Below, piece by piece: positions 2,991 through 26,321 of a DNA stretch of 64,000 nt; positions within the stretch are counted from its first letter, which is position 1; the number at the start of each line of letters is the position of its first letter. Below the pieces are notes generated by a model. The model was not told where the DNA came from, ran no database searches, and saw only the letters and a program-made list of their open reading frames with translations. A program made the position numbers and the translations under genes. This stretch comes from Candidatus Paceibacter sp. (GTDB lineage Bacteria > Patescibacteriota > Patescibacteriia > S139-126), in contig DYGA01000001.1 of the NCBI GenBank assembly GCA_020724865.1, forward strand, positions 196,624 to 260,623. The letters run 5' to 3'.

Positions 2991-3001
2991 TTTTTCAAAA
3001 C

Positions 3002-3038
3002 AAAAAAGCGGAAAATTTTTTCCGCTTTTTATTTTTTT
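3002..3038. terminator. Bidirectional Rho-independent terminator between the convergent lipoprotein gene and the pilin array.
   Basis: The stem GCGGAAAA pairs with TTTTCCGC around a short loop. It is flanked by an A-run upstream and a T-run downstream. Confidence 0.6.
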
Positions 3039-3052
3039 ATAAACAAATAAAA

Positions 3053-3469: not shown

Positions 3470-3478
3470 ATTTTTAAC

Positions 3479-3856
3479 TTATCCCGTAGCAGAAAGTATT
3501 ACGTCAATTATAAATAAAGATAGGGCATAGGCCAGAATAACTATCAAAAGTCCCACTGTAGAGCTGGTCAAAATTTTTCTAGCTTTTTCAATTTGTTGAT
3601 CATTGCCAGCTGCAGTCATCCATAAAAAGCCGCCGTAGATAATCAAAACCAAAAAAATAGTTCCTATAAAACCTAGAGCATATTTGATAATTTCTCCAAC
3701 CAAAAAAGCGGGATTATCAGCTTCGGCTAGTTTAGCTTTTTGGTTGGTAGCTTGGGCAGTAGTTAGGGCATCTTGCAGTACAGAAGCTTTGACTAAACTG
3801 GGCCAAGTAAATATTAGACTAATAAAAAAATAAAATTTTACTTTTAGTTTATGCAT
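3479..3856 (-). CDS. VirB2/TrbC-like pilin family protein, paralog 2. The likely start is the internal Met MHKLKV; the ORF-track start at 3874 would overlap the upstream gene.
   Basis: Its motif IIYGGFLWMTAAGNDQQIEKARKIL is identical to paralog 1, while the N-terminal mature region differs. Confidence 0.55.
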   Translation of the reverse strand: MHKLKVKFYFFISLIFTWPSLVKASVLQDALTTAQATNQKAKLAEADNPAFLVGEIIKYALGFIGTIFLVLIIYGGFLWMTAAGNDQQIEKARKILTSSTVGLLIVILAYALSLFIIDVILSATG

Positions 3857-3857
3857 A

Positions 3858-4187
3858 TTATAAACCAGCATCAATCAAAGTTCTAAAAACAAATTGAGTA
3901 ATGGCAAAAGCCAAGACCACTACCAATAGCCCAATCGTTGATGAGCGAATTATTTTTTGGGCCTTTTGTACTTTTTCTTCATTACCCGCAGCCGTCATCC
4001 AAGTAAAGCCCGCATAAATAATCAACACCAAAAAAACTGTTCCCAAAATTCCCAACACAGAATTGATAATACCACCTACCACATCTGGTAGCGAGGGATT
4101 GGTGAGACCCGTTGCCTGTTGTGCGTCAGAAAGTTGTTGATCCATAGAGGGAATTTGGGCATATACTTGTTTAATAAATTTGATCAT
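3858..4187 (-). CDS. VirB2/TrbC-like pilin family protein, paralog 3. The likely start is the internal Met MIKFIKQ.
   Basis: It carries the motif IIYAGFTWMTAAGNEEKVQKAQKII and two TM helices. Confidence 0.55.
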   Translation of the reverse strand: MIKFIKQVYAQIPSMDQQLSDAQQATGLTNPSLPDVVGGIINSVLGILGTVFLVLIIYAGFTWMTAAGNEEKVQKAQKIIRSSTIGLLVVVLAFAITQFVFRTLIDAGL

Positions 4188-4189
4188 AA

Positions 4190-4819
4190 TTAATTGCAAT
4201 TATAAACACTGCCACAAAGTTCAGCGCAAGTAGCATTGGGTCTAAATAAATTTGGCGAAATACAACTGCTGCTAGTTTGACCATCGGTGCAATTATAGCT
4301 ATTTCCAACTGGTTGCAAACAAGCGCCGGTGGTAGTCGTATTTCCACCGCCAGAACTAGACGAAGATTTTTTATAAGCTTCAATAAAAAAGTTTGTTAAG
4401 GCGAAGGAGAGAAATACTAAAATAAACCCGACCACCGCACTACCTAATATTTTTGTGGCTTGTCTGACTTTTTCTTCATTGCCTCCAGCGGTCATCCAGG
4501 TGAACCCACCATAAATAAATAACACCAACATCACCACGCCAATAATACTTAAAATACCTCTTATTATAGTGCCAATTCTAGTTCCCAAAGAAACATCGGA
4601 TTTTATACCACCAATACCAGCGGCTTTGTCTAAATTGGACAGAGAATCTGCTTTGGCTAAAGTATAAAAAGTCGGAGAATTTGACTCAATAGCAGAAGCA
4701 CCAGTTACTTCAGCTGCTAAGGCAAATTGTCCACCAATAATCACGGCGGCTACCAAAATGATAGCCACCGTGATGTGGAATGTATAATCTTTTATTTTTT
4801 TATAAAAATAAAAATTCAT
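4190..4819 (-). CDS. VirB2/TrbC-like pilin family protein, paralog 4, with a Ser/Thr-rich linker and a Cys-rich C-terminal extension. The likely start is the internal Met MNFYFYKK.
   Basis: The core motif is FIYGGFTWMTAGGNEEKVRQATKIL. The C-terminal tail reads SSSSSGGGNTTTTGACLQPVGNSYNCTDGQTSSSCISPNLFRPNATCAELCGSVYNCN, with 7 Cys and several N-x-S/T sequons. Confidence 0.55.
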   Translation of the reverse strand: MNFYFYKKIKDYTFHITVAIILVAAVIIGGQFALAAEVTGASAIESNSPTFYTLAKADSLSNLDKAAGIGGIKSDVSLGTRIGTIIRGILSIIGVVMLVLFIYGGFTWMTAGGNEEKVRQATKILGSAVVGFILVFLSFALTNFFIEAYKKSSSSSGGGNTTTTGACLQPVGNSYNCTDGQTSSSCISPNLFRPNATCAELCGSVYNCN

Positions 4820-4827
4820 TACTGTAA

Positions 4828-5181
4828 TTATTGAGTAGCACCGATGATTACGCTGAAGATCCAAGTTGATAAGGCGTAAGCAATAATGATAATAAGCAAA
4901 CCAATAACGCCGGCGCTAATAATTTTCTTAGCTTGAGCAACTGCTTCTTCGTTGCCACCTGCAGTCATCCAACGGAAGCCACCTGCGATAATAATCAAAG
5001 TCACTACGATACCCAAAATTCCTAAAACTACATTGATAATACGAGCAATAGTTTCTCTGACGTCTTGTGTACCAAGACCAATTAAACTACCGTATCCTGT
5101 TCCAAATGGGTCAGTAGCCATTGCTGCAACTGGAGCTAATAAAAGTGACAAAAGACCAAAGGCTAATAGTTGTTTTTTCAT
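4828..5181 (-). CDS. VirB2/TrbC-like pilin family protein, paralog 5. It has its own strong RBS and a 117-nt upstream spacer, so it may be the major subunit.
   Basis: The motif is IIAGGFRWMTAGGNEEAVAQAKKII, with a signal peptide ending LLAPVAAMA. The sequence GAAAGGAGGTG lies immediately upstream of the ATG on the minus strand. Confidence 0.6.
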   Translation of the reverse strand: MKKQLLAFGLLSLLLAPVAAMATDPFGTGYGSLIGLGTQDVRETIARIINVVLGILGIVVTLIIIAGGFRWMTAGGNEEAVAQAKKIISAGVIGLLIIIIAYALSTWIFSVIIGATQ

Positions 5182-5298
5182 AATGTCACCTCCTTTCTAA
5201 AATTATATTTTTAAATCATACCTTTTACACTTTACACTAATTAGTGTCTAAGGTGATTTTATTATAACAGATATTATTTATTTTGTAAAGTTGATTTA

Positions 5299-5943
5299 TT
5301 AAGGTGAAGTGCGGCAACATTGAACAGTGGACCCGCCATTACATAAATTTGGCGTGCAAGTTCCATTACAACTTGTTGTGCAGTTTTCTAAACAGATACC
5401 AGCGTAATTGTAAGCGCAGACAGTATTGATAAGCGTATTATTTTCACCATTTTGACAAATATTATTGATACAAACATACACATTACCATCTGGTCCAGAA
5501 CAATTTGCACCATCAGGTTTACCTAAGCATTCCGAAGAAGTAGTATTGGAACTATTTGGATTTAGTTGGTATTGGCCTTTGACACCAATAAGTTTTTGTA
5601 AGTTAGATACAATTACATAGCTACCCAAAACAATTGCCAAACCAATCACAGTACCGACTAAGATATTGCGAGCGCGAGTAATTCGTTCTTGATTGCCACC
5701 GGAAGTAATAAACATCACCCCGCCAATGACCATTAACAGCAGTCCTGCTGCACCAAGATATTTAACTAAAAATAAATAAAAATTGGCAAACATTTGCACT
5801 AAATCAACCAAGTCGCATTTTTCTGCATTTCCTACCAAGCAATCATTCGGAATAATAGGTGAAGTTTGGGCAAAAGCTAAGCTAGGCAGAAAACCTAAGG
5901 CCAAAAACAGAAAAATAAAGAAAATATTTTTTTTAGTTTGCAT
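5299..5943 (-). CDS. VirB2/TrbC-like pilin family protein, paralog 6, with a long Cys-rich, sequon-rich C-terminal knob.
   Basis: The core is ITSGGNQERITRARNIL, with a TM helix on each side. The C-terminal ~85 aa contain about 16 Cys and the sequons NSSNTT, NCSG, NNTL, NCTT and NGTC. Its start overlaps the stop of the upstream SBP gene by 11 nt. Confidence 0.55.
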   Translation of the reverse strand: MQTKKNIFFIFLFLALGFLPSLAFAQTSPIIPNDCLVGNAEKCDLVDLVQMFANFYLFLVKYLGAAGLLLMVIGGVMFITSGGNQERITRARNILVGTVIGLAIVLGSYVIVSNLQKLIGVKGQYQLNPNSSNTTSSECLGKPDGANCSGPDGNVYVCINNICQNGENNTLINTVCAYNYAGICLENCTTSCNGTCTPNLCNGGSTVQCCRTSP

Positions 5944-7339
5944 AAGTTGGTTTAATATAAGTTTGTTTTAGTTGTTCGACGGTATTGCGCATTAGCATAT
6001 TAAGATCAGAAAAATTACCTTGGTTCACTGTGGCTATAAGTTGTTTAATAATTTCTTCAGCTGCAATTGGATTGTAACCCCGATACCAACTTTCCGCAGT
6101 TAATGCTTGTTGGGTAAAGACCGAAGAGTTTGGTTCCGCTTGCTGTTTGGCGATTAGTTCTTTTAATGCGGGAGCTTTGCCGGATTTGGTCAAATAAGTT
6201 TCATTGTATTCTGGTTTAGTGGTGGCAAATAAGATAAAATCCCAAGCCGTATCTTTGATTTGCTGCTCACCACGGGGAGATACTCCCAACAACCAGTAGT
6301 TAGCAAAATTATATTTTTTAGCCAAAGGATCAATTTGTGGCAAGGGGGCAATGCCAAAATCTATTTTTGGTCCGCGGGCTCTGATTAAGGGAGCGTGGTA
6401 AGAATAGCCAAACATCATTGCGGTTCGCCCTTGAGCAAATGCATCCAGTGAATTGGGAAAGGTTTGATTCCAGGTATAAACTTCTTTGATGGGATTGGCA
6501 AAATCCGTATAAAAAATTAGAGCTTGTTGGCCGGGATTGTAGTCTTGACTGCCGCCGGGTGGAATTTTGTCAAAAGCCGGCATGTTGTCCGCACCAATCA
6601 TCTGTGCGCCATTTTGCATCATCAGTACCGACAAAATATCTGTGCCCCGTTCCACATTATCAGCTCTGCCCATAGCCACTGCGCTCCTGACTATTTTATT
6701 ATCCGTATCCAGTCGAGTGAGTGAAAGTACATCTTGTTTAAATTCTGCCCAGGTAGAAGGTGGAGTAGCAATATTAGCATCACTGAATAAAGTTTTATTG
6801 TAGTAAAGCGCCAAGGTATCTAGACCCAAAGGTAAGGCATAAATTTTATTATCTCGAATGACATCGTCTTTGACAACTTTGACAAATTTTTCATCCACTT
6901 GAACTGGGGTGAGAGTGGGAAAATCTTTTAGTTCCCAAATAACCTCTTTCTTGAATGTTCCTTTTGTAGTTTGGATTGGTAAAGCTATGGTTTGTGGTAA
7001 AGGTTCTAATTTTGTTTGGTAAGCTGTCACCCAAGTATTATGTAACATAAAAATATCTGGACCTCTATTTTCTGCCCAAGCTTCCAGCAATGCTCGTTCG
7101 TACTCTTCAATGCGTAGTTTTCGATATTCAAAATTGACATTGGGTCGAGTTTTTTTATACTCGGTAAAAATATCTTGCAACAAATCTTGCTCATCCCATA
7201 CCCCCCAAATTTTTAAAGTGATAGGTTTAGCTGCTTTTTGCGCTTCGGGATCACCGCCTTTGCAACCCACTCCCAACAGCGGTAAAGATAACATAATTAT
7301 CGTCAGTCCAAAAAATTTTATTTTAGTTAAACTTTTCAT
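5933..7339 (-). CDS. ABC-transporter-type extracellular solute-binding lipoprotein (family 1, sugar-type). It is an orphan, with no permease or ATPase adjacent.
   Basis: There is a lipobox LLGVGCKGG. The overall length and the aromatic- and Gly-rich pattern fit family 1 substrate-binding proteins. It is translationally coupled to pilin paralog 6. Confidence 0.55.
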   Translation of the reverse strand: MKSLTKIKFFGLTIIMLSLPLLGVGCKGGDPEAQKAAKPITLKIWGVWDEQDLLQDIFTEYKKTRPNVNFEYRKLRIEEYERALLEAWAENRGPDIFMLHNTWVTAYQTKLEPLPQTIALPIQTTKGTFKKEVIWELKDFPTLTPVQVDEKFVKVVKDDVIRDNKIYALPLGLDTLALYYNKTLFSDANIATPPSTWAEFKQDVLSLTRLDTDNKIVRSAVAMGRADNVERGTDILSVLMMQNGAQMIGADNMPAFDKIPPGGSQDYNPGQQALIFYTDFANPIKEVYTWNQTFPNSLDAFAQGRTAMMFGYSYHAPLIRARGPKIDFGIAPLPQIDPLAKKYNFANYWLLGVSPRGEQQIKDTAWDFILFATTKPEYNETYLTKSGKAPALKELIAKQQAEPNSSVFTQQALTAESWYRGYNPIAAEEIIKQLIATVNQGNFSDLNMLMRNTVEQLKQTYIKPTYAN

Positions 7340-7349
7340 AAAACTACAT

Positions 7350-8234
7350 TTAGATTAATTTTTTTAGATAGGCTTTTAGATCTTTGCTTATCTCCTTATC
7401 TTTTAGTCCATAAGCAATATTGGCTTTCAACCAAGTCAGTTTGTTACCGGTATCATAGTATATGCCGTCAACAATTTTGGAATAAATTGGACGAGTTTTT
7501 CCCAAAGCATCCACAGCATCAACTAGCCACAGTTCATTGCCTTTGCCTAGTTTGGTTTTTTCTAAAATCGGGAAAATATCAGGAGTCAAAATATAACCGC
7601 CCAAATTAGCAATCAATGAAGGAGTTTTTTCTGGCCCTGGTTTTTCAATAATTTTTTCTATCTGATAAACCGTTGGTTCAACTTTTACGCCTTTGAGCAT
7701 GCCGTATTTGGCAGCATCGGCTCTAGGCACTTGGTAACCAGTTGTTACCGGATCGCCATATTTTTGAAAAACTTCAATTAGTTGCAATAACCTTGGTTTA
7801 TCAGGACAATCAAAAACTTCATCTCCCCATAACATAGCAAACGGTTCATTGCCTACAATCGGTTTGGCATTCAAGATTGGCGTTCCATTGCCATAAGGGC
7901 CTTTTTGTCTGATATAAATAAAATTCGCAAGACGCGAAATATTTTTTATTTTTTCATACAGATCTTTTTTAGCTGGACTGCTTTTTAAAATTTCTTCCAG
8001 TTCGGGTGAGCGGTCAAAGTGATCTTCACAGGCGCGTTTAGTATAAGAAGTAACAAAAATAATATCAGTAATACCTGAGGCAACCGCTTCTTCAACCACG
8101 TATTGCAAAATTGGTTTGTCCAATATTGGCAACATTTCTTTGGGAATGGCCTTGGTAGCTGGTAAAAATCTAGTTCCCAGTCCCGCAACAGGAATTACTA
8201 CTTTTCGGATTGGATGAGTAAATTTTTTGGTCAT
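7350..8234 (-). CDS. galU: UTP--glucose-1-phosphate uridylyltransferase.
   Basis: The N-terminal motif VIPVAGLGTRFLPATKAIPKEMLPILDKP and the downstream VDAV..LG pattern are hallmarks of the GalU family. Confidence 0.85.
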   Translation of the reverse strand: MTKKFTHPIRKVVIPVAGLGTRFLPATKAIPKEMLPILDKPILQYVVEEAVASGITDIIFVTSYTKRACEDHFDRSPELEEILKSSPAKKDLYEKIKNISRLANFIYIRQKGPYGNGTPILNAKPIVGNEPFAMLWGDEVFDCPDKPRLLQLIEVFQKYGDPVTTGYQVPRADAAKYGMLKGVKVEPTVYQIEKIIEKPGPEKTPSLIANLGGYILTPDIFPILEKTKLGKGNELWLVDAVDALGKTRPIYSKIVDGIYYDTGNKLTWLKANIAYGLKDKEISKDLKAYLKKLI

Positions 8235-8789
8235 GACAAACTATTAGTTTAATTTATTATAACAAAAATTACCAGTTTTATCCAAATTAAATAAAAAAAT
8301 AAAAAGATACTGTAATTCAAAAGTAACAGTATTTTTTAATATAGAAATTAGTTTAGTGTAAAATCTTGATAAAATACAATGAATTGCAAATGATACTTGT
8401 ACGTCTTTTTTATTTAGTTACAAACATAAAATCAAAAATTTTTTTTACAATTCCTTATTCAAACAGAAATCACTTTGCAAATTGGTGTAAAATTGAAAAA
8501 TAGTTTTGATTTAATCCTATTGTTTTGTTATTTAAAAAAACTTATATTTATTTTTATTATTGTTCAAATATTTAATTTATTCTTGTTTTTTATTCACGTT
8601 GATGCAAAATCATTCATTTTAACTTTACGCTTACTTTTTACAATTACCTTGTATTGGTCTTTTGTATTTGCTCTCATGATATCTTTCGGCATTTGTTTCG
8701 TTTTCCCTACATTATTTATTTTGTGATAACTATAAAAAAACAAATTTAACTAATGTAAAGATAAATTTTTACTTTTTTGTTTATTCAAT

Positions 8790-9637
8790 TTAGGGATTAC
8801 AATATTCACAGTATTTAGGATCAGCAATTTTATCATAGTTGTTGTTATGTCTTTTTTCTTCGTAATTACATACAGAACATTTATATAGGTCATAAATAGG
8901 TAATTCTGTTGGTGAATTACACTATGAACATCTTAGTCCTTTTTTAAAATCGACAACAATAAAACCAGGAGCTTTGCACCGTGGGCATAAAGATTTAATG
9001 TTTTTTATTAAATCTTCAGTTGCTTTTTTTATTGCTTTCATGCGTGTAGGGTTTCTATGCGCTCGCATGTCGGACTCAATAAAAATTCTATTTGTAAAAA
9101 AATTATTTAATAATTTTTTAACTGTTTTTATTAGGTCTTTTTCTGTTGCAATATCCTTATAAATTCCAAAATGTCCATTTTTACTTTTTCTTACAATTAC
9201 ACCATGTTCAGGAAAGCCAATTTTTTTAGCAAAATCTAGTGCTTCCTCTACGGTTGTAACATATTGACCGTCTATGTTTGTTTCTGGAGTTCTGTGATGT
9301 CCCAGAATTTCAAACCCGTTTTTCTTGTCAATAAACAATAATAATTCTAAATTACCTTGAACAAAGGGGATTGATGGATGAGGACTAAAACTACCTTCAC
9401 TTGAAATACCTAAATCAACATTCTCAATTTTCATAGCCGCATGCAATTTTCTCGCGCGGCTTCTAATTGATTGCCAGCTCTTTTTATATCTCTAGTAAAA
9501 GTACCAAACTTATCAGAGTTAAATTGTTTGGGAACTACAATTTCAACATCAAAATGTTTTTTAATTAAAGGAGCAATCACTTGTTCTTTTTTATACATTG
9601 TGGCTATAACAATTTTTCTGCCTTTAAGTATATACAT
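8790..9637 (-). pseudogene. Disrupted gene of unknown function, carrying one frameshift in an A4 homopolymer and one in-frame TAG followed by a continuing zinc-ribbon-like coding sequence.
   Basis: ORFs 9431..9637 and 8922..9446 abut in different frames. Adding one A to the run GAGAAAATTG fuses them into a continuous ...QLEAAREKLHAAMKIENV... protein. After the TAG at 8922 the same frame continues without a stop as CNSPTELPIYDLYKCSVCNYEEKRHNNNYDKIADPKYCEYCNP, which supplies further CxxC pairs to partner the CPRC motif just upstream of the stop. Confidence 0.5.
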
Positions 9638-9918
9638 TATGTTTATTTTAAAATTATATTTAAATTTATTTCAGGCACTTTGACTTCCTTTTTACATTTT
9701 TTGTTGTTTTGATTTGTCTATTTATTGACACATTATCAATTTAAATCCAATTAATAATAGATGTTATATGTAATATATTTATATTTTTTGTGCTTATATT
9801 TTAAAGTAGAAAAAAATGTATTCATCAATTTTATACAGTTGATTTATAATTAAGATTTATCTAGTAACAAGGCGCTTTGCGCCGAGGTAACATCTTTCAA
9901 TTTCGTTAAATTTTAAAT

Positions 9919-10008
9919 TGGCGGAGAGGGTGGGATTTGAACCCACGAAGGATTTTCATCCTTACCGCATTTCGAGTGCGGCGCTTTCAACCACTCAGCC
10001 ACCTCTCC
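9919..10008 (-). tRNA. tRNA-Ser (anticodon CGA), type II with a long variable arm and encoded CCA.
   Basis: Hand-folded cloverleaf. The acceptor GGAGAGG pairs with CCTCTCC. The anticodon stem CCGCA/TGCGG carries the loop CTCGAAA. The variable arm is GGATGAAAATCC, and the T-loop is GGTTCAAATCC. Confidence 0.85.
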
Positions 10009-10099
10009 GGGTTATTATTAAGTATTTAAGTATTAAGGAACAGGTATATAAGTTATCAGTAATGTATATTATAACTTTTAAATTATATTAAGACAAAGA

Positions 10100-10127
10100 T
10101 TGACAAAATCCCAAAAAATGCTATTAT
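10100..10127 (+). promoter_or_regulatory. Candidate sigma70-type promoter (TTGACA, 16-nt spacer, TATTAT) for the 10186 gene.
   Basis: TTGACA lies at 10100-10105 and TATTAT at 10122-10127, about 58 nt upstream of the ATG. An AGGAGA ribosome-binding site is present. Confidence 0.4.
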
Positions 10128-10185
10128 TATTGGTCACTTAGTTGTTTAAAAAAATATTTTATTCATAAAAATAGGAGAGACAACA

Positions 10186-10671
10186 ATGTTCGATAAATCA
10201 ATTTTTGAAAAATTACCACTAAGAGTAGTGGTATTTGAGGACAATACAGCTGAGCAAATAGCTGCTGGTATAGCACTCACAAAGGTGGGCTTAAAATGTG
10301 AAATCATTGATCACTTTGATCTCAATGCTATCAGTGATGATAGTTCAGTGATCGGTGTGCTCACTGATGTATTTTTAACTACTGAACCCGAAGGATTTGG
10401 GATTGCTGCTTTTTGTTCTCAACACAGTATACCGTGTTGTATAGTAACCCAACAAGTTAACCATAATTTTTCTGGCTGGAAGGGCGCTATTTTGGAAATA
10501 TGGGATAAACTTGATATTAAAGTTTTCTTATCAACCACTTCTCCTAAAAATTGGGAAAGTGCCGCACTTTATTTTGCGCAAAGAATCCATACCGAACTAT
10601 TGAAAGCTCCCACCCCGCTTGGTAAAAGTTACCAACGTTATTTTTATCATCTTAACCAACAAGATGAATAA
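10186..10671 (+). CDS. Hypothetical protein, 161 aa, with a possible highly divergent receiver-like fold.
   Basis: The evidence is a clean ORF with an RBS. Weak similarity to the response-regulator pattern (RVVVFEDN ... VIGVLTDVFL) is speculative. Confidence 0.35.
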   Translation: MFDKSIFEKLPLRVVVFEDNTAEQIAAGIALTKVGLKCEIIDHFDLNAISDDSSVIGVLTDVFLTTEPEGFGIAAFCSQHSIPCCIVTQQVNHNFSGWKGAILEIWDKLDIKVFLSTTSPKNWESAALYFAQRIHTELLKAPTPLGKSYQRYFYHLNQQDE

Positions 10672-10680
10672 AAAGAATAA

Positions 10681-10709
10681 GGACTCGAAATCTCGAGTCC
10701 TTTTATTTT
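10681..10709. terminator. Bidirectional Rho-independent terminator shared by the convergent genes on either side.
   Basis: A perfect 8-bp stem GGACTCGA/TCGAGTCC with loop AATC is followed by TTTTATTTT and preceded by an A-run. Confidence 0.7.
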
Positions 10710-10714
10710 GGCGC

Positions 10715-10969
10715 TTACCAGTTGTTTAGTTTGGTAGCGTTAAATGTTCCGCCTAATTTTGCTAAGTTATTATCATTGTTGTGCCCCGGTACACCACCGA
10801 TGCCATAGGTTGGTAAAGTGGTTTGACCCACAAAGGGTACGTGAATTTTGTCATGGCCAAAGCCAAGGTCAGCGTGTACGCCATTGTTTAGTGAAAAGTG
10901 GACAGGTGATAACGGCTTATCATTGATGATAGGCGGATTGAATTTATCCATGTGGTTCATGGTTTTCAC
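10715..10969 (-). CDS. Small Gly/Asn/His-rich hypothetical protein, 84 aa.
   Basis: It is an ORF with the RBS GGAGG upstream (AAGGAGGTGAAAACCATG on the minus strand). Its low-complexity composition is GGVPGHNNDNN. Confidence 0.35.
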   Translation of the reverse strand: MKTMNHMDKFNPPIINDKPLSPVHFSLNNGVHADLGFGHDKIHVPFVGQTTLPTYGIGGVPGHNNDNNLAKLGGTFNATKLNNW

Positions 10970-11122
10970 CTCCTTAAAGTAGTTTAAATGAACGAAATAT
11001 ATTGATTTGGAATTTTATAAATTGGTGAGAAATATTGTAGCAAAAAGCCGGTTTTTGGTCAATGGTTAGATTGTCGAAAAACTCGCCAAGTGTCATACTA
11101 AAAATATAATTATAAAAAATTT

Positions 11123-11518
11123 ATGAACTCCTATAATTGGTATCAAACTCTAATTAAACCCGCTTGGGCGCCGCCAACTTTTTTGTTTGGACCAGTCTGG
11201 ACCGCACTTTATACTATAATAGCCATATCTTTTGGTACTGTTTTTTACAAAATTTTCACCAAACAACTTCCCACCACACTGGCCTGGCCCTTTGTTTTGA
11301 ATTTAGTTTTCAATTTTGCTTTCACCCCTTTGCAGTTTGGTTTGAAAAACAATCTGCTGGCAGCTATAGATATTTTACTGGTACTAGCTACTTTAGTCTG
11401 GGCACTGGTGGCTATTTATCCGCATCTCAAATGGGTGACTTTGGTTAATATCCCTTATTTACTCTGGGTGTGTTTTGCCACAGTATTGCAAATAACCATC
11501 ACTTATTTAAATAGATAA
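11123..11518 (+). CDS. tspO: TspO/MBR family tryptophan-rich sensory protein.
   Basis: The motif LIKPAWAPPTFLFGPVWTALYTIIAISF matches the TspO signature (KP.W.PP...F..VWT.LY). Five TM segments are predicted in about 130 aa. Confidence 0.75.
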   Translation: MNSYNWYQTLIKPAWAPPTFLFGPVWTALYTIIAISFGTVFYKIFTKQLPTTLAWPFVLNLVFNFAFTPLQFGLKNNLLAAIDILLVLATLVWALVAIYPHLKWVTLVNIPYLLWVCFATVLQITITYLNR

Positions 11519-11562
11519 CTTACAAGTGCTATAATGTAAATATTAAGTATTAATATTTTTAT

Positions 11563-11817
11563 ATGAAATTCAAAAAGAACGAAGGCACAATTGATCGTAT
11601 TATTCGGGTAGTTGTTGGGTTGGTTTTGATTTTTTTGGGCATGCAATATACCGCTTGGTTATGGATTTTAGGATTGGTGGTACTGGCCACTGGTGTAATT
11701 GGTTGGTGTGGTCTTTATCAGGTGCTTGGTATTTCCACCTGCAAAGTAAAACCAGCTGAAACAAAAGACCAAACTCCACCTACTACTCCTCCAACAGATA
11801 CGCCATCGGTGATGTAA
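11563..11817 (+). CDS. DUF2892-like (YgaP-type) small membrane protein.
   Basis: The pattern DRIIRVVVGLVLIFLG ... TGVIGWCGLYQVLGIST matches the R..G..L..G ... G.CP.Y..LGi.T pattern of the DUF2892 TM domain. Confidence 0.55.
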   Translation: MKFKKNEGTIDRIIRVVVGLVLIFLGMQYTAWLWILGLVVLATGVIGWCGLYQVLGISTCKVKPAETKDQTPPTTPPTDTPSVM

Positions 11818-11900
11818 AATAGAAAATTAAAAGGACTCATGAAGATGAGTTCTTTTAATTTTCTAGAAAAATTTTTTCATGAAATAACAAAATAAATTTT

Positions 11901-12806
11901 ATGAAATATAACCAATTAACCTCAGAAGAAAAAAGAATCATCGAAGATAAAGGTACAGAAATGCCAGGCAGTGGTGAGTATGATGATTTTTTTGAGAGTG
12001 GAATCTATACTTGCCGAAGATGCAATGCCTGGCTCTACCGCTCAGCAGATAAATTTTCCGCTCACTGCGGTTGGCCCAGTTTTGATCAAGAAATTGCTGG
12101 AGCAGTTATTAGACAAACAGATGCTGACGGACAGCGTACTGAAATTTTGTGTGCACGCTGTGGTGGACATTTGGGGCATGTATTTATCGGAGAAAAATTT
12201 ACGGCGCGTGATACCCGTCACTGTGTTAATTCTTTGTCTTTGCGTTTTATCCCTGAATCTGAATTAAAAGAAAAAATTCAAACTATAGTTTTGGGTGGTG
12301 GGTGTTTTTGGTGTTTGGAAGCATATTTTTCGCAAGTGCAAGGAATCACCTTAGTTATATCTGGTTATGCGGGCGGTGATATAGAAAATCCTACCTATGA
12401 GCAGGTTTGCAGTGGCAAGACTGGTCATGCTGAAGTAGTGAAAATAGAATTTGACCAAACCCAAATTGCTCTGGAAATGATTTTACAAATATTTTTTACA
12501 TTGCATGATCCTACTACCCGCAATCGTCAAGGCGCTGATGTTGGTAGTCAGTACCGCTCAATCATTTTGACTAAAGATGATGAACAAAAAGATATTGTAG
12601 AAAATTTTGTCAGTAAGTTAATTGAAAGTAAATTATTTTTTAAACCCATTGTCACAGAAGTAAAACTTTTGGATAAGTTTTATCAAGCCGAAGATTATCA
12701 CCAGGAATATTTTAAAAATCATCCCGAAGCCGCTTACTGCCAGGCCGTGATTTCCCCTAAACTTGCCAAATTGCGTCAGCATTTTTCTTTACTTTTGAAA
12801 CCCTAA
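11901..12806 (+). CDS. msrAB: Bifunctional peptide-methionine sulfoxide reductase MsrB-MsrA, with the B domain N-terminal.
   Basis: The N-terminal half carries the MsrB zinc and catalytic motifs CRRC ... HCGWPSF ... CARCGGHLGHVF. The C-terminal half carries the MsrA active site GGGCFWC and the GHAEVV motif. Confidence 0.85.
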   Translation: MKYNQLTSEEKRIIEDKGTEMPGSGEYDDFFESGIYTCRRCNAWLYRSADKFSAHCGWPSFDQEIAGAVIRQTDADGQRTEILCARCGGHLGHVFIGEKFTARDTRHCVNSLSLRFIPESELKEKIQTIVLGGGCFWCLEAYFSQVQGITLVISGYAGGDIENPTYEQVCSGKTGHAEVVKIEFDQTQIALEMILQIFFTLHDPTTRNRQGADVGSQYRSIILTKDDEQKDIVENFVSKLIESKLFFKPIVTEVKLLDKFYQAEDYHQEYFKNHPEAAYCQAVISPKLAKLRQHFSLLLKP

Positions 12807-12884
12807 AACTGCCCCAAATAAGGGCATTTTTGGTTGATTTTTATAGTCAAAAATGATGAAATAAAAACAAGTAGATAATTATTA

Positions 12885-12958
12885 GTTACTAATTATTAAT
12901 TAATAATCAATTGATTAATTTTTAATTATTTAATTAGTAATTTCTAATCTCTAATCCA
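12885..12958. repeat. Copy 1 of a ~75-bp AT-rich repeated element (the partner is at 26225-26300), lying just upstream of the 12975 gene.
   Basis: The two copies share TTAATTAATA(A/G)TCAATTG(A)TTAA ... AATTATT(T)AATTAGTAATTT. By manual alignment they are roughly 80 percent identical, including an exact 13-mer TAATTAGTAATTT. Confidence 0.5.
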
Positions 12959-12974
12959 AATTTTATTTTAAACC

Positions 12975-13418
12975 ATGATATTTAAAACCGATATAATTTT
13001 AAATTGGCCCATCGAGAACACTTTTGCTGCGCTGAAGAGTCCAGCGATGATGAAAAAAGTTGCTTGGCCTTTGGTGATATTTAAACCAGTGAATCCAGAA
13101 GTGTTTCCTGAGAGCTGGCAGGACGGGCAAACTTATAAAATGAATATGTACTTACTTGGTTTTTTACCGATGGGTTGGCAGGAGTTGAAAATTTCTGGTC
13201 AGCAAGATGCAGATAAATATATACTCAAAGATGTTGGTCCGGGTTGGGCAGTAAAATGGTGGGACCATCAAGTGATCCTGACAAAAACATCAGAAAACAA
13301 AACCCATTACAAAGAAGAACTTATTTTATCTACTGGTTTTTTGAAACCGATTATTTGGTTGGGCATGACAACACTTTTTTGGTGGCGAAAATATAGATGG
13401 TTAAAGTTAACTAAATAA
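12975..13418 (+). CDS. Hypothetical protein, 147 aa.
   Basis: The only evidence is the ORF, which is preceded by the repeated AT-rich element. Confidence 0.4.
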   Translation: MIFKTDIILNWPIENTFAALKSPAMMKKVAWPLVIFKPVNPEVFPESWQDGQTYKMNMYLLGFLPMGWQELKISGQQDADKYILKDVGPGWAVKWWDHQVILTKTSENKTHYKEELILSTGFLKPIIWLGMTTLFWWRKYRWLKLTK

Positions 13419-13442
13419 AAGATTTCTATCAGTTAATAAAGT

Positions 13443-13931
13443 ATGAAAAAATTTATTGAATTTATAATAAAAATGTTGGAATTATTGTTTGGTTTTACAA
13501 AAACAAAAACCAACACCAACGCGATGAGATATTTGCTAAAAGAGAAGACTATGAATAGTTCTGAACAAGCATTATATATAAATTTACAAAAAATGTTAGG
13601 CGATAAATATATTGTGCTTTCCAAAGTCCGACTTGAAGATTTTATAGAAGTTGATACTAGAGGTTTATCGCGTAATGAGTGGTGGGGTTTGAGAGGAAAA
13701 ATTAAATCCAGACATGTTGATTTTTTGATTTGTGATTTAAATACAACAAAACCGATTTTGGCTATTGAACTTGATGGTAATTCTCACCAAACACACAAAA
13801 GGATAGAACGAGATAATTTTATAGATGAATTGTATTCTTCTGTTCAATTGAGAATAGAACACATTAGAGTAGGTAGTGATTTTAAACAAAAAGTAGAAAA
13901 AATCAGCACTTTACTTACTGACAATAAATAA
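13443..13931 (+). CDS. DUF2726-family nuclease-related protein.
   Basis: The core HVDFLICDLNTTKPILAIELDGNSHQTHKRIERDNFIDELYSSVQLRIEHIRV fits the DUF2726 / PD-(D/E)xK-like pattern (vDFvl ... IElDg.sH ... D ... G). Confidence 0.6.
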   Translation: MKKFIEFIIKMLELLFGFTKTKTNTNAMRYLLKEKTMNSSEQALYINLQKMLGDKYIVLSKVRLEDFIEVDTRGLSRNEWWGLRGKIKSRHVDFLICDLNTTKPILAIELDGNSHQTHKRIERDNFIDELYSSVQLRIEHIRVGSDFKQKVEKISTLLTDNK

Positions 13932-13980
13932 TATCAAATTAATTTTTTATTATAGATTCTTAATTCTAATTTATATTTAC

Positions 13981-15069
13981 ATGGCTAAAGTATATGGACA
14001 AATAGGCTCATTTTTAAGACTTTGTGATAGTTTGAAAATAAAAAATGTAAATGTTTTTGAATCTTTTGAGGAAATTAGAAAATTAGTTGATAATTATAAG
14101 GAAGCCCCAGAAAAAATAAAAAATAAAAAAATTGAAGAATTGAAAAATGAAATTGATGAAATAAGAAATAAAATTGAGAAACTAAAGTTTGAATATGATA
14201 AGGAAATAACAGAGAGAAAGGAAAAATTATTGAAAGAAAAAAAAGAGTTGGATTGGTTTATAGAAGTTTATTCCAGGGATGTAAATAATATATTTAAAAA
14301 AATAATAAATTATTATAAAAAGAGAAAATTTATTGAGAGAAAAGAATGGATTGAAAAGTTTTTTGATTATGAACTTAACCGACCTTTCAAAAGTATTATA
14401 GATGAAATAAAATCTTGGCAATCTGATTTAGATTATCGACAAGATAATTTTGATAAAATAGTTGAAGAAAAATATAACGAAGAAGTCAACTTTTTGAATT
14501 TAGTTTATAACACTATCAAAAGTAACAAAGAGTTTTATTATGGAGCAATTGGTGAACAAATGGTGCTTGATAAATTGAAAAGTTTACCTGATGAATATAC
14601 TATTATAAATAATTTTCAACATAAATTTAGCAGACCAGTGCCTGACAGAAAAAATAATGATTTTATTTATTCAGTGCAAATTGATCATATATTAGTTGGT
14701 CCCACTGGTTTGTATTTGATTGAGACAAAAAATTGGAGTAAAAATAGTATGGATGATTTAGATCTTTATTCTCCAATCAAACAAATAAAACGTTCTTCGT
14801 TAGCACTATTTGCTTTATTGAATCAAGCCATACGTCAGGGTTATTTATCTAGATTTTTGGATCCATGGGGAGAAGAACAAATTTCACCTAAAAAAATATT
14901 GGTTGTTATAAATCATAAACCAGAACAAGAATATCAGTTTGTTAAAATATTAACTCCTGGTGAATTGGAAAAATATATATTAAATGAAAAGGTTTTTTTT
15001 ACAAAAGAACAAGTAGAAAATTTAGTAACTTATTTAAAATCAGAAAAAAACTATTTTCATGCATATTGA
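13981..15069 (+). CDS. NERD (nuclease-related domain) protein with a long N-terminal coiled-coil region.
   Basis: The C-terminal half contains ...IDHILVGPTGLYLIETKNWSK..., matching the NERD signature. The first ~200 aa are K/E-rich heptad-like coiled coil. Confidence 0.6.
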   Translation: MAKVYGQIGSFLRLCDSLKIKNVNVFESFEEIRKLVDNYKEAPEKIKNKKIEELKNEIDEIRNKIEKLKFEYDKEITERKEKLLKEKKELDWFIEVYSRDVNNIFKKIINYYKKRKFIERKEWIEKFFDYELNRPFKSIIDEIKSWQSDLDYRQDNFDKIVEEKYNEEVNFLNLVYNTIKSNKEFYYGAIGEQMVLDKLKSLPDEYTIINNFQHKFSRPVPDRKNNDFIYSVQIDHILVGPTGLYLIETKNWSKNSMDDLDLYSPIKQIKRSSLALFALLNQAIRQGYLSRFLDPWGEEQISPKKILVVINHKPEQEYQFVKILTPGELEKYILNEKVFFTKEQVENLVTYLKSEKNYFHAY

Positions 15070-15100
15070 GGAAGAGACACAAAGTGGAAATAAATAATTT

Positions 15101-15364
15101 ATGACAAGAAAAGATTATTCAAAATTATCCAAAGAAGAACTGATCCAGCTGGTAGAGAAATTAGAATCCCGCAAAAAATACGGGCTGGTGTGGGATGAGG
15201 AGCGAACAAAAGAAAAATTTGAAAAGGAATCAGAAAACGCCTTGCCGGTTTTGAAAGAAGTCAAAAGTAAAGAGATTAAAACTGATCCAACCAAGCCGAC
15301 CAATATCTTGATTGAAGGCGATAATTATCACGCTCTTTCTGTTTTGAACTACACCCACCAATGA
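15101..15364 (+). pseudogene. N-terminal relic of a Type III / Type IIG-like adenine-specific DNA methyltransferase (Mod-like); the rest of the gene is deleted.
   Basis: The sequence LSKEELIQLVEKLESRKKYGLVWDEERTKE ... NILIEGDNYHALSVLNYTHQ matches the characteristic N-terminus of Mod-type methylases (nlLIeGDNlhaLk.L). It stops just before the expected catalytic DPPY region, and no methylase body follows in any frame. Confidence 0.5.
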
Positions 15365-15552
15365 ACTTAGCGAGATTACTACTCAAAGCAAAGAAGCTCA
15401 CATGAGATTTTTCCTGTTTACTAAAGAAGAATTGCAAAACAAAACTGTATATCCAGAAAAAATGAAACAAGGGGTGATTGATTGGCTAAAAACAGGAAAA
15501 AGTTTTTGGGTATATTAAAAATAAATTTTATATTTTTAATTTTGAATTTTAT

Positions 15553-15960
15553 ATGACTATTAAGAAAAATTTTTATTTTAAAGTTATCGGAGTGTGGTTT
15601 TTACTGGCGGTGCTGGCGAATATCAACGGTTTAATCAGAAATTTTGTTTATGGCCCCTATTTAAGTGAGCTGACTGCTCACCAAATAAGTGCCGTGCTTT
15701 TTATCATAATTTTATTGATAGTGAGCTATTTATTTTTTGGAAAAAAAGAATATAGTAATAAAGAATTGTGGTTAGTGGGCAGTCTTTGGTTAGTATTAAC
15801 AATTGCTTTTGAATTTTTGTTTGGTCATTTTGTAATTGGGCACAGTTGGGGAAAATTGTTGGCTGATTATAATCTTTTGGCGGGACGTTTGTGGAGTTTG
15901 GTATTGTTAATCACTTTTCTGGCTCCTTGGATGACAAAAAAAATTTTTAATTATTTATAA
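15553..15960 (+). CDS. Hypothetical integral membrane protein (4 TM), 135 aa.
   Basis: The evidence is the ORF and its hydrophobicity pattern. Confidence 0.4.
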   Translation: MTIKKNFYFKVIGVWFLLAVLANINGLIRNFVYGPYLSELTAHQISAVLFIIILLIVSYLFFGKKEYSNKELWLVGSLWLVLTIAFEFLFGHFVIGHSWGKLLADYNLLAGRLWSLVLLITFLAPWMTKKIFNYL

Positions 15961-16229
15961 CTACTTTTTTGATAAAAAAATAGCCATTGTCTACCAACGA
16001 CAGGTTATAATTTTTGTTTTATAAAAAATTTATGCTAAATGATTAGTTGTTATTAGAAATTTAAAAGGTGACCTTGTGGTCACCTAGAGGGCATTTATGA
16101 AAGGAGGTTCATTTTAAGTCTATACGTTGGTAGGTTTTTTAAAAAAGCAATTATGATTAAATTATAAGTATAATTTAGATATTTGTCTAGATTTGAAACA
16201 AAACAGCTAATTTATTGTAGTATTTATCA

Positions 16230-16790
16230 ATGATGGAATCAATTGCCAGTAGTGATGAGGATATAGTCCGTGAAGTTCAAACTGGAGCCACCGAGGCATT
16301 TGGCGTTCTAGTTGAGCGTTATGAGGACAAAATGAAGCGTTATGCGCGTCGCTTTTTGTTTGGTTATGAAGAAGCCGAAGATATTGTTCAGGAAGTTTTT
16401 ATAAAGGCTTATATAAATATCCATTCGTTTGATGCAAGACGCAAATTTTCTTCCTGGCTTTACCGTATTGCCCACAATGAATTCATTAATGCTATCAAGA
16501 AAAAAGGTAAAGAACCGGTGCCATTTTTTGATCCTGACAGTTTATTTCCTCACCCCATTGCCAAGGAAGAAACCGACAGTGAAATTAATCGTCAAGAAGT
16601 AGTGAAACAGTTAGAACAGTGTCTAGATAAAGTTGATGCTAAATATCGAGAAGTGATGGTATTATATTATTTTGAAGATCTAGATTATCAGCAGATCGCT
16701 GATATTTTACAAATTCCGATAGCAACTGTAGGCGTGAGATTAAAGCGGGGGCGGGAAAAAATTAAAAAATTATTAGACCAAAAAATATAA
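16230..16790 (+). CDS. RNA polymerase sigma-70 factor, ECF subfamily.
   Basis: Region 2 (YARRFL ... EDIVQEVFIKAY ... SWLYRIAHNEFINA) and region 4 (YREVMVLYYFEDLDYQQIADILQIPIATVGVRLKRGREKIKK) are both recognisable. Confidence 0.85.
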   Translation: MMESIASSDEDIVREVQTGATEAFGVLVERYEDKMKRYARRFLFGYEEAEDIVQEVFIKAYINIHSFDARRKFSSWLYRIAHNEFINAIKKKGKEPVPFFDPDSLFPHPIAKEETDSEINRQEVVKQLEQCLDKVDAKYREVMVLYYFEDLDYQQIADILQIPIATVGVRLKRGREKIKKLLDQKI

Positions 16791-16792
16791 TT

Positions 16793-17551
16793 ATGGAAAG
16801 TGAAAAAACACCAAAGCTGAAAGAACAAATTTTAAGCAAAATAAAATCAGGCAGTATTAAAGCTAAGCCCAAATTTCATTTTGTCTTGCGGACTTTGTTA
16901 CTAATTAGCGGTTTAGTAGCGGCGGGATTGTTGTTATTGTATTTGATTAGTTTTGTAATTTTTTTATTACGCGTCAATGGTTTATGGCAAGCTCCGACTT
17001 TTGGTTTTAGGGGTTGGGGTATGCTGTTTACATCTTTACCCTGGATGTTACTGATATTGATTGGTTTTTTTGTTTTGGTGATGGAAATTTTAGTTAAACA
17101 TTTTTCTTTTGCTTACCGTAGACCGTTGCTTTATTCGGTATTGGGGATATTAGTATTTCTGGGTGTAAGTGGTTTTGTGGTAGCTCAAACACCTTTTCAC
17201 CAAAATTTATGGGATTTGTCAGAAACAGATTCTGGGTTACCAGTGGCAGGTTCATTATATAGCTTTTTACGTAAAGGTGATCCCGATGATTGGCATCGTG
17301 GTATGGTAATTTCTACAACAGAAGAAGGTTTTCTAATGGAAAATTTAGCCGCCGAAATTTTATCAGTAAAAATTGATGAACAAACGAAAATACCTTTTGC
17401 CCTTGATTTGTTGCCAGGCGATATGGTGATGGTGGCGGGGGAACGTATTGGCGATGAGATTAAAGCTTTTGGTATAAGGGAATTTTCTAAACCAGTGTTT
17501 AGACCAAGGCACATGAAAAAAATGCCTCCTGGTAAAAGTTTAAATCGTTGA
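16793..17551 (+). CDS. Putative membrane-anchored anti-sigma factor, partner of the ECF sigma.
   Basis: It starts 3 nt after the sigma-factor stop. It has a short cytoplasmic N-terminus, TM helices and an extracytoplasmic C-terminal domain, which is the typical ECF anti-sigma arrangement. Confidence 0.5.
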   Translation: MESEKTPKLKEQILSKIKSGSIKAKPKFHFVLRTLLLISGLVAAGLLLLYLISFVIFLLRVNGLWQAPTFGFRGWGMLFTSLPWMLLILIGFFVLVMEILVKHFSFAYRRPLLYSVLGILVFLGVSGFVVAQTPFHQNLWDLSETDSGLPVAGSLYSFLRKGDPDDWHRGMVISTTEEGFLMENLAAEILSVKIDEQTKIPFALDLLPGDMVMVAGERIGDEIKAFGIREFSKPVFRPRHMKKMPPGKSLNR

Positions 17552-26063: not shown

Positions 26064-26224
26064 TTAATTATTAAATTAACCTTTTTTGACTCAAAGGTCC
26101 TGCCTACCACAGGTTTTATTAAATAGTAGGATTAACCCTATTACTTTATAGGAAAGTTTATATTTTGGCAAGACTAAGCCTTTTTGGGTTATAATGTAGA
26201 TAGTTTAATAATAATTAATGACAA

Positions 26225-26300: not shown

Positions 26301-26321
26301 AGTTATTAATCATCATCTCCC

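Follow-up and report, generated by a model that had tools for sequence, protein, structure and literature searches.

The window (the whole 64,000-nt stretch of DNA analysed here) lies on a small, low-GC bacterial chromosome. The region under study holds three adjacent plus-strand ORFs, confirmed at the positions given in an earlier note made from the sequence alone: a DUF2726 gene, a gene for a protein with a helical bundle and a NERD domain, and an 87-codon ORF related to the start of a DNA methyltransferase (mod) gene. Flanking genes and the features recognized between them are listed in Table 1. An ECF sigma/anti-sigma pair lies downstream of p135. Comparison with the close relative L109, by blastn and a base-by-base check, showed that homology stops on the left at 13420, 2 nt past the p147 stop codon.

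Table 1. Genes, gene relics and boundaries at the locus, in window coordinates
Feature	Position	Strand	Basis or remark
p147 (faint DUF8410)	12975..13418	+	Last syntenic gene on the left; relatives of p147 found
Lineage-specific variable segment, 1,941 nt	13421..15361	+	Appears to fill the slot between p147 and Nudix-p135
DUF2726 protein, 162 aa, intact	13443..13931	+	Pfam
Helical-bundle + NERD protein, 362 aa, intact	13981..15069	+	Pfam, alignment, AlphaFold2
Type III mod 5′ relic: ribosome-binding region and codons 1–87	15089..15361	+	PADLOC, DNA alignments
87-codon mod ORF as called, TGA stop included	15101–15364	+	ORF list
mod/Nudix recombination junction	15358..15362	+	Base-by-base three-way comparison, MAFFT
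Nudix hydrolase gene 3′ relic: last 51 codons and stop	15362..15518	+	Identity to L109 and L102
p135, small membrane protein	15553..15960	+	First intact syntenic gene on the right

No integrase or transposase ORF was found within 12.9–16.3 kb in the ORF list or by Pfam, and no direct or inverted repeats were found flanking the variable segment. The nearest tRNA (Ser) is 3.4 kb upstream and not adjacent to it. An Rfam search returned tRNAs only, and a promoter scan gave a result no better than for shuffled sequence. An AT-rich palindromic motif at 12873–12946 was considered as an island boundary or MITE and ruled out: it is not placed at the edges of the segment, and copies occur in spacers elsewhere (window 26208–26318 and spacers of L102 and L109).

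The first gene matched Pfam DUF2726 (PF10881) at E=3.7e-27; the score was 95 bits, where 24.7 is the cut-off. Two Vsr-like REase families, MTES_1575 and DUF559, also matched, though more weakly. The residues V92-D93-F94 and A107-I-E109-L-D111 were invariant in an alignment with homologues from L022 (67% identical by BLASTP) and L046, and the conservation of D93, E109 and D111 fits the PD-(D/E)xK-like core proposed earlier. DUF2726 has been described as a Vsr/DUF559-like PD-(D/E)XK family that occurs close to mobile elements and has no known function (PMC3424549), and has been found fused to AbiJ-NTD3 (PMC3710099). Relatives of the gene were carried by 104 plasmids (59 predicted to be conjugative), and the one plasmid example inspected adjoins relaxase/TraI genes; the window gene differs in being chromosomal with no conjugation gene nearby. 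It was also distantly related to DDP3 of plasmid R6K (NCBIfam NF041452), at 24 bits, far under the cut-off of 140. The protein had no match in PADLOC-DB v2 and one family of unknown function in PHROGs, and its single-sequence AlphaFold2 model was poor (pLDDT 55.7) and unusable for fold search.

The second gene matched Pfam NERD (PF08378; E=9.8e-15, 55.5 bits against a cut-off of 22.1) at residues 188–280. The NERD assignment made previously is correct. In the AlphaFold2 model of the protein (pLDDT 91.9), long helices at residues 42–200 are followed by an alpha/beta domain. The PD-(D/E)xK triad D235 ... E248-T-K250 was identified, with D235, E248 and K250 invariant in 43 homologues, and the window protein retained all invariant columns of that alignment. 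The best Foldseek matches of the C-terminal alpha/beta domain in the PDB were PD-(D/E)xK nucleases, but they were weak (Can2 at E=4.7e-3 and a TM of ~0.2 over the whole chain, then R2 endonuclease, Bax1, McrC and AF1548). PDB sequence searches with the 87-aa ORF, DUF2726 and the NERD family gave chance or coiled-coil matches only.

It was found that 337 homologues of the NERD protein exist, most of those listed being 330–390 aa and aligned over 90–100% of the query. The relatives sampled were solitary genes in unrelated contexts, mostly variable or mobile, and no plasmid homologue was found. Matches to PADLOC and NCBIfam profiles were weak and far below cut-offs: the helical N-terminal region matched PbeC and Ppl, and the NERD region reached 25 bits against MADS6, whose cut-off is 460. 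In PADLOC-DB v2 there was no significant match to a system component, the hits being confined to the helical region (PbeC at E=0.002, LeoBC at E=0.28). PHROGs gave a weak match of that region to an integrase family, and NCBIfam offered no usable names.

The NERD domain (PF08378) is credited to Grynberg & Godzik 2004, as cited in PMC3424549. NERD domains have been reported as enriched in defence islands (PMC9226505), and the NERD protein ZwsA is reported to be an RNA endonuclease that acts against RNA phages (bioRxiv 10.64898/2026.04.06.716636). The window protein resembles NERD-domain nucleases in its above-threshold domain, its D...ExK triad and its occurrence as a solitary gene. It differs from ZwsA in consisting of a ~190-residue N-terminal helical bundle plus NERD, without VHS, DUF647 or S4 domains, and from helicase-fused NERD proteins in lacking a helicase fusion. 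One rather speculative reading, which we hold to be doubtful, is that helical-bundle + NERD proteins form an uncatalogued, phylum-spanning family of ~350–370 aa that would act as stand-alone anti-phage or anti-plasmid nucleases, the helical bundle serving in sensing or oligomerization, and that the window member may act with the adjacent DUF2726 protein. Both the DUF2726 and the NERD gene were shown to be full length with intact predicted catalytic motifs, so that the earlier description of a decayed islet does not fit these two genes.

The 87-codon ORF matched N-terminal positions 33–102 of the PADLOC MTase_III profile (E=4e-10). It was 60–89% identical to N-termini at 80 genomic loci, which agrees with its previous identification as the N-terminus of an adenine methyltransferase, and had no Pfam match, PF01555 included. 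It carries the family-specific N-terminal region ...KKYGLVWDEE...ILIEGDNYHALSVLNYTHQ. About 70 of the 80 loci continue as proteins of 540–640 aa through ...NYTHQ GKIDVIYIDPPYNTG; the window ORF ends right after NYTHQ, with its stop 9 codons upstream of DPPY. That it ends before DPPY had been stated in the earlier reading. DPPY (catalytic motif IV), the AdoMet-binding motif and the target-recognition domain are all absent. At the DNA level, the stump was 70–83% identical to mod genes from many phyla. These alignments began between 15088 and ~15170, those of the closest relatives at 15089–15100, and nearly all finished at 15357–15364. The start codon and the upstream ribosome-binding region are kept. 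Parts of intact mod or res genes had no match in any frame downstream of the stump, and no other mod or res remnant was found in the 64-kb window, including by tblastn with an intact Res. On sequence grounds, the 87-codon ORF corresponds exactly to the 5′ end of a Type III mod gene whose family has been widely transferred; it is predicted to be a pseudogene stump, not a system.

The assignment to a restriction-modification type rests on the intact relatives, in which a Mod of ~560 aa is followed by an overlapping ResIII gene of ~780 aa, the pairs being self-sufficient two-gene units. An overlapping ORF of 727–831 aa lay directly 3′ of mod in 25/25 of the well-flanked relatives listed; two of these ORFs were identified by Pfam as ResIII (PF04851), and the L018 Mod was identified as N6_N4_Mtase (E=2e-27). 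Because this overlapping ResIII-type gene follows mod in the relatives, the family is Type III and not IIG, which narrows the original Type III/IIG label. The likeness to a Type III system of EcoP15I-type organization (PF01555 Mod + PF04851 Res) lies in the N-terminus of the stump and the PADLOC Type III methyltransferase profiles. The difference is that only mod codons 1–87 are kept in the window and the whole res gene is gone; given the sizes of intact Mod and Res, ~3.8 kb would be missing. Because the methyltransferase body and res are missing, the restriction-modification system is non-functional at this locus.

The end point of the stump was resolved by comparing the window base by base with the L109 Nudix gene and five intact mod genes, and with MAFFT. 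Identity to mod runs to ...CACCAA (15361), and identity to Nudix takes over from TGAACTT (15362). Nothing but CCA(A) is common to both parents there, a microhomology of 3–4 nt, and the TGA stop of the mod ORF was created at the junction itself. The tail beyond it was 98% identical to residues 88–138 of the intact 138-aa L109 Nudix and 82% identical to the intact Nudix of the sister species L102, which matches PF00293 (E=1.3e-14). The tail lies in a different reading frame from the mod stump and lacks the Nudix box GX5EX7REUXEEXGU, which is present in the L102 and L109 orthologues. Both breakpoints are fixed with an uncertainty of no more than 2 nt, and the origin of each piece is established. 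The earlier statement that the downstream tail encodes no methylase body in any frame is correct, but the stretch taken as empty is a Nudix 3′ end that had been missed. An exhaustive HMMER search with the tail peptide returned only weak partial relatives and a 38-aa ORF called from the same relic. Separately, an origin of the tail as a mod or res 3′ end was rejected, as it resembles none of the 80 loci.

The sharp junction with so little shared sequence appears to mark illegitimate recombination. The window evidently comes from a metagenome-assembled genome, in which an abrupt junction could be a mis-join made in assembly, but the identical junction and gene order recur in at least 10 independently assembled contigs from different samples and sources (Logan, NCBI GCA_020725305.1); among them is a strain lineage whose flanks diverge by 1–2%. 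An assembly chimera is thus vanishingly improbable.

Short ORFs of 81–153 aa with this Mod N-terminus were common in metagenomes, some of them on long contigs, and could suggest that the 87-residue peptide has been kept as a functional small protein, for example a decoy or regulator of a related Type III Mod/Res. The retained start codon and ribosome-binding region would fit such a role, as would the sole difference between strain lineages in the stump, which is synonymous, and the lack of any deviation at the 36 columns that are ≥90% conserved in the 75 relatives reading through residue 87. However, the short ORFs differ in their causes and end points: that in L011 is due to an IS insertion (IS with 33-nt inverted repeats), that in L115 is a split gene, and many others are truncated at contig ends. 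None of the 80 genomic loci stops near residue 87, the stop codon in the window was made by the junction, and divergence is too low to measure selection. A functional peptide is therefore considered very improbable. The lack of any decay in the stump, seen in the 36 columns and the single synonymous strain difference, fits a recent event but would fit continued constraint on the fragment as well, and to that extent counts against the main reading given below. The first protein search for stump relatives listed only proteins of ≤153 aa, and a break hot spot at about Mod residue 87, suggested by many 81–91-aa versions on long contigs, was rejected as ascertainment bias.

The earlier note had treated DUF2726, NERD and Mod as one decayed anti-phage locus with the two nuclease genes as its orphaned survivors. 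In keeping with this, all three genes have nuclease or restriction-modification associations, they lie side by side in the same orientation, and no terminator-like site is predicted on the plus strand between them. At the L022 mod locus, moreover, the 67%-identical DUF2726 gene is found 8.5 kb downstream, within a defence island that also has T5orf172, SIR2 and HerA genes. Across the 80 mod loci, however, a NERD relative was never found within 10 kb (0/80), and a DUF2726 gene was found at two, in neither case adjacent to mod. The neighbourhoods of four NERD-family genes contained neither DUF2726 nor a Type III mod. Homology to mod begins only past the NERD stop codon, at 15089–15100, and intact mod-res pairs need no further gene. 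Composition also separates the genes, with a GC3 of 0.16 for NERD and 0.23 for DUF2726 against 0.42 for the mod stump (flanks, 0.29–0.38); overall GC was 0.284 for DUF2726 and 0.245 for NERD. Because their families are normally solitary, their motifs are intact and their composition is unlike that of the mod stump, the DUF2726 and NERD genes are predicted not to be part of the restriction-modification cassette, and a single decayed locus is improbable. The description of a largely deleted restriction-modification remnant is accurate for the mod stump, the rest of which is gone from the window, but not for DUF2726 and NERD as leftovers.

The position occupied by these genes is variable in relatives, although it is defined by only two informative ones, L109 and L102. 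In L109 the place is taken by a different 1,452-nt segment, which holds a TM-NERD gene (254 aa), an ORF of 49 aa and the 5′ portion of Nudix. In L102 synteny holds from p135 across the sigma and anti-sigma genes and further on, while Type I HsdS/HsdR, a DpnI-like gene and additional Nudix genes lie upstream of p135. Both relatives have an intact Nudix gene. The segment at 13421–15361 thus appears to fill a small variable cargo slot between p147 and Nudix-p135-sigma.

We consider it highly probable that the locus is a slot holding two independent, intact nuclease-fold cargoes beside a Type III mod-res that was lost by illegitimate deletion into Nudix. A horizontally acquired mod-res cassette would once have stood next to DUF2726 and NERD in the slot. 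Illegitimate recombination at CCA/CCAA would then have fused mod codon 87 to the resident Nudix gene at about its codon 88, removing the rest of mod (~1.4 kb), res (~2.3 kb), whatever separated res from Nudix, and ~260 nt at the 5′ end of Nudix. The outcome would be two dead stumps back to back, the 87-codon mod ORF and an out-of-frame 51-codon Nudix tail. By joining mod to Nudix, the deletion would also have destroyed a host gene. No contig with the order DUF2726-NERD-mod-res-...-intact Nudix was found, and the pre-deletion state is one that we infer rather than observe.

The same final structure is predicted by a one-step import, in which mod-res was never intact here. A donor fragment carrying p147-DUF2726-NERD-mod(5′) would have entered by a homologous crossover at its left end, within p147 or further upstream, and an illegitimate one on the right inside Nudix, that is, by homology-facilitated illegitimate recombination. 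Identity to L109 by blastn was 86.6% on the left (window 10000–13420, 3.4 kb) and 97.6% on the right (15358–16194, 0.84 kb), the pattern to be expected of a left flank and cargo derived from a donor lineage more distant than that of the right flank. In addition, DUF2726, NERD and the tail differed at 0/1,766 nt between strain lineages, compared with 1–2.4% in the flanks. However, divergence between the strains is patchy in any case, with TspO, PvlArgDC and the MsrAB-p147 spacer likewise identical, and the asymmetry of the flanks could equally be due to a right flank that was recently exchanged in L109. To the left, the contig of L109 stops after 3.4 kb, and no return to high identity is visible. 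An import of this kind is possible but unlikely, and deletion of a resident mod-res is the preferred reading.

Defence islands and other variable genomic slots are known for the rapid gain and loss of restriction-modification systems. The present slot resembles them in having differing defence-type cargo at or beside the same position in L109 and L102 and in the skewed composition of its cargo. It differs in being tiny (1.9 kb), in lacking an integrase, transposase, adjacent tRNA and flanking repeats, and in that one of its boundaries was formed by illegitimate joining within a host gene. The features of a classical integrative genomic island (integrase/transposase, tRNA-adjacent insertion and direct repeats) are likewise all absent.

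Overall, the locus is a case of ordinary defence-gene turnover in a small slot, and its biological importance is modest. The two nuclease-fold genes are presumably functional at present, most probably as stand-alone defence or mobile-element-derived DNases, and the conserved, uncharacterized helical-bundle + NERD family is worth including in experimental defence screens. For annotation, 'pseudogene fragment' is a better label than 'hypothetical protein' for both the 87-aa ORF and the 38–52-aa Nudix tail. The junction provides a base-pair-resolved example of how a restriction-modification system may be lost from a small genome, through a microhomology join in which a neighbouring host gene is sacrificed. 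It also suggests that a tiny chromosomal slot can act like a defence island without recognizable mobility genes.

The stretch between p147, the last gene syntenic with relatives on the left, and the pair formed by a Nudix remnant and the small membrane protein gene p135 is very probably a variable slot. This slot would take changing cargo, here two intact, independent nuclease-fold genes, and illegitimate recombination would have welded the stump of a Type III restriction-modification (mod-res) cassette onto that of the resident Nudix gene. ORF calling recovered all three plus-strand ORFs proposed in the earlier note, and profile searches supported each assignment, the third through PADLOC as it had no Pfam match. 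The surrounding window is chromosomal, encoding GyrA, PolA, UvrB, UvrC, RpoB, RpoC, RNase J and eight tRNAs at a GC content of ~33%. GC3 was 0.23 for DUF2726, 0.16 for NERD and 0.42 for the mod stump against 0.29-0.38 for the flanks, so that parts of the islet are set apart by composition as well.

Features of the islet and recurrent intergenic motif (L102, contig of a sister species; L109, contig of a close relative)
Feature	Window	L102	L109	Strand	Length	Profile match
DUF2726 ORF	13443-13931			+	162 aa	Pfam DUF2726, E=3.7e-27
NERD ORF	13981-15069			+	362 aa	Pfam NERD, E=9.8e-15, residues 188-280
mod stump ORF	15101-15364			+	87 aa	PADLOC Type III methyltransferase, E=4e-10
AT-rich palindromic motif	12873-12946, 26208-26318, 36890-36922	9898-9961, 11418-11484	3116-3192, 4726-4783			

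The 87-aa product aligned to the N-terminal part of the methyltransferase profile (positions 33-102 of 528). When 185,579 species-representative genomes were scanned, at least 475 relatives were confirmed among the first 600 hits to the search pattern. Protein identity was 60-89% for the best 80, which are spread over widely separated phyla (Patescibacteria, Omnitrophota, Bdellovibrionales, Bacteroidota, Planctomycetota, Gammaproteobacteria, Nitrosopumilaceae and other archaea). The reading frame stays open for 540-640 aa, past ...NYTHQ-GKIDVIYIDPPYNTG, in ~70 of these 80 loci, and one full-length relative run against Pfam was an N6_N4_Mtase. An overlapping ORF of 727-831 aa directly follows mod in 25/25 well-flanked loci; both of the two run against Pfam were ResIII. 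The long mod and its overlapping partner point to a two-gene Type III mod-res cassette of ~4 kb as the parent, not a Type IIG enzyme, so that the earlier reading as a Type III/IIG relic is narrowed to Type III. DNA identity between mod genes and the window was 70-83%, with alignments starting at 15089-15100 for the closest relatives and ending at 15357-15364 in nearly all; no further mod or res pieces were found across the whole 64 kb. In the 75 relatives that read through residue 87, 36 alignment columns are at least 90% conserved, and the stump agrees with every one of them, which indicates a surviving fragment without decay. A functional role for the 87-aa peptide is improbable, the lack of decay being the one positive point for it.

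Between bacteria of unrelated phyla and archaea (Moraniibacteriota, Gammaproteobacteria, Bacteroidales and Nitrosopumilaceae among them), mod genes share 75-83% DNA identity over their 5' 260 nt. This would imply that a single Type III cassette family, whose N-terminus is unusually conserved, has spread horizontally very widely and fairly recently. Two other relatives were interrupted. In L011 (6001-8944), an ISAzo13-family IS bounded by 33-nt inverted repeats (6244-6276 and 7529-7561) breaks mod near codon 82; just downstream come another Type III mod-res pair, unrelated to this one, and a DUF433/PIN toxin-antitoxin pair. In L115 (616-2369), mod is split into an 89-aa ORF and a 457-aa N6_N4_Mtase ORF 110 nt apart, possibly because of a frameshift or small insertion.

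The stop codon of the mod stump is followed by a 52-codon open stretch in a different frame. That this stretch encodes no methylase body was borne out, since it matched no mod-res locus, but it is not empty. A metagenome scan with p135 as query recovered L102, in which synteny with the window covers p135, the ECF sigma/anti-sigma pair and another six genes; its intact 138-aa Nudix-box protein (PF00293, E=1.3e-14) has a C-terminus 82% identical to the tail peptide. Synteny was likewise compared with the closer relative L109 (p147 93% identical), in which the order is TspO, YgaP, MsrB/A, p147, TM-NERD (254 aa), a 49-aa ORF, intact Nudix (138 aa) and p135; the tail is 98% identical to residues 88-138 of its Nudix protein. 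Upstream of p135, L102 carries a differing defence set (199-9133) of Type I R-M (HsdS, HsdR with an EcoEI_R_C domain and, spotted by eye only, an HsdM-like fragment), a methyl-directed endonuclease resembling DpnI, an Exo_endo_phos protein and a Nudix gene. Two additional Nudix paralogues are found just downstream of p135.

Alignment to L109 showed 86.6% identity on the left (window 10000-13420, ending 2 nt past the p147 stop codon) and 97.6% on the right (15358-16194, beginning at about Nudix codon 86), which delimits a lineage-specific segment of 13421-15361. Base by base, mod identity runs up to ...CACCAA (15361) and Nudix identity starts from TGAACTT (15362), the overlap common to both parents being CCA(A) only. 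The join itself supplies the TGA at the end of the 87-codon ORF, and the Nudix tail reads in a different frame. Together these features carry the signature expected of illegitimate, microhomology-mediated recombination. Compared with the intact genes, mod and res together lack at least ~3.8 kb and Nudix its first ~260 nt. At least 10 contigs from independent assemblies share the identical junction, which excludes an assembly artefact. Among them is a strain lineage with 1-2.4% divergence in the flanking genes, so the junction is real and predates the split of the two strain lineages.

The join may have arisen by in-situ deletion of mod-res and the Nudix 5' part or by one-sided import of an already truncated fragment. 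The unequal flank identity to L109 would imply recombination between diverged lineages on one side and hints at import, but divergence is patchy along these contigs. Between the window and three same-species contigs (L002, L005 and L010), DUF2726, NERD and the Nudix tail differed at 0 of 1,766 nt (window 13443-15552) and the mod stump by one synonymous change, amid flanking genes with 14 (MsrAB), 18 (anti-sigma) and 5 (p135) mismatches. This suggests that the islet recently spread or swept among strains, although TspO, PvlArgDC and one spacer are likewise identical.

Several other differences were seen nearby. A minus-strand radical SAM gene (458-461 aa) lies between the YgaP-like gene and MsrAB in one strain lineage (L002 1253-2638, L005 1253-2629) and is absent from the window at ~11820-11900, which makes it a second insertion that varies among strains, at 1.5 kb from the islet. 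MsrB and MsrA are overlapping separate ORFs in L109 (2138-3048; 122 and 189 aa) and a 301-aa fusion in the window (11901-12806). In L006 (2182-3501; GCA_020725305.1, DYFH01000050.1), ECF sigma and anti-sigma (window 16230-17551) are called as one fused ORF of 439 aa; the sigma stop codon may be read through there, or the sequencing may differ at that position. The palindromic motif of ~70 nt (TAATTA / TTACTAATTA-type repeats) recurs in intergenic spacers of the window and its relatives and may be a promoter/operator region or a small repeat element.

The earlier note had taken DUF2726, NERD and Mod for survivors of one decayed locus, which is poorly supported. Mod homology first appears downstream of the NERD stop codon, GC3 differs, and no NERD relative lay within 10 kb of mod in 80 loci. 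DUF2726 genes occurred in two of these loci, L022 (67% identical, 8.5 kb off, past Res, T5orf172, SIR2 and HerA genes) and L046 (31%, opposite strand). The two nuclease-fold genes thus do not appear to be leftovers of the R-M system. Nor do they look decayed: the DUF2726 protein, which also matched two Vsr-like restriction-endonuclease families in Pfam more weakly (MTES_1575 and DUF559), keeps its D93 / E109-L-D111 core, and the NERD protein is full-length with all invariant residues of its family, including the PD-(D/E)xK triad D235 / E248-T-K250.

By sequence, the family of the NERD protein is widespread (337 matches, most among those listed being 330-390 aa with 90-100% of the query aligned). 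A confident AF2 model of the protein (pLDDT 91.9, pTM 0.78) places a long helical bundle (helices 42-96, 104-126, 128-155, 157-181 and 183-200) before an alpha/beta domain; the best PDB fold matches were weak and all PD-(D/E)xK nucleases (Can2, R2 restriction-like endonuclease, Bax1, McrC and AF1548). Each of four sampled members was a solitary gene, and their settings were unrelated: one lay in a conjugative element, one in an island with MmeI and toxin-antitoxin genes, one among housekeeping genes and one in a mercury-resistance island. Relatives of DUF2726 occurred on 104 plasmids, 59 predicted conjugative, and the one inspected adjoins relaxase/TraI genes. Neither protein matched a catalogued defence system in PADLOC. 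DUF2726 has been placed with Vsr and DUF559 as a PD-(D/E)XK family whose function is unknown, with multiple transfers and closeness to mobile elements, and NERD as "unknown, nuclease-related" (PMC3424549). DUF2726 fusions to AbiJ N-terminal domains (PMC3710099) and enrichment of NERD in defence islands (PMC9226505) have been reported. ZwsA, a multidomain NERD protein, is reported to be an RNA endonuclease active against RNA phages (2026 preprint, bioRxiv 10.64898/2026.04.06.716636), but the NERD protein here differs from it in architecture.

That R-M systems are lost, that they leave pseudogene stumps and that defence genes turn over at variable sites is already well known; the islet adds a clean new case, its scar being unusually well resolved. 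The uncharacterised family combining a helical bundle with NERD is the sole element with some discovery potential.
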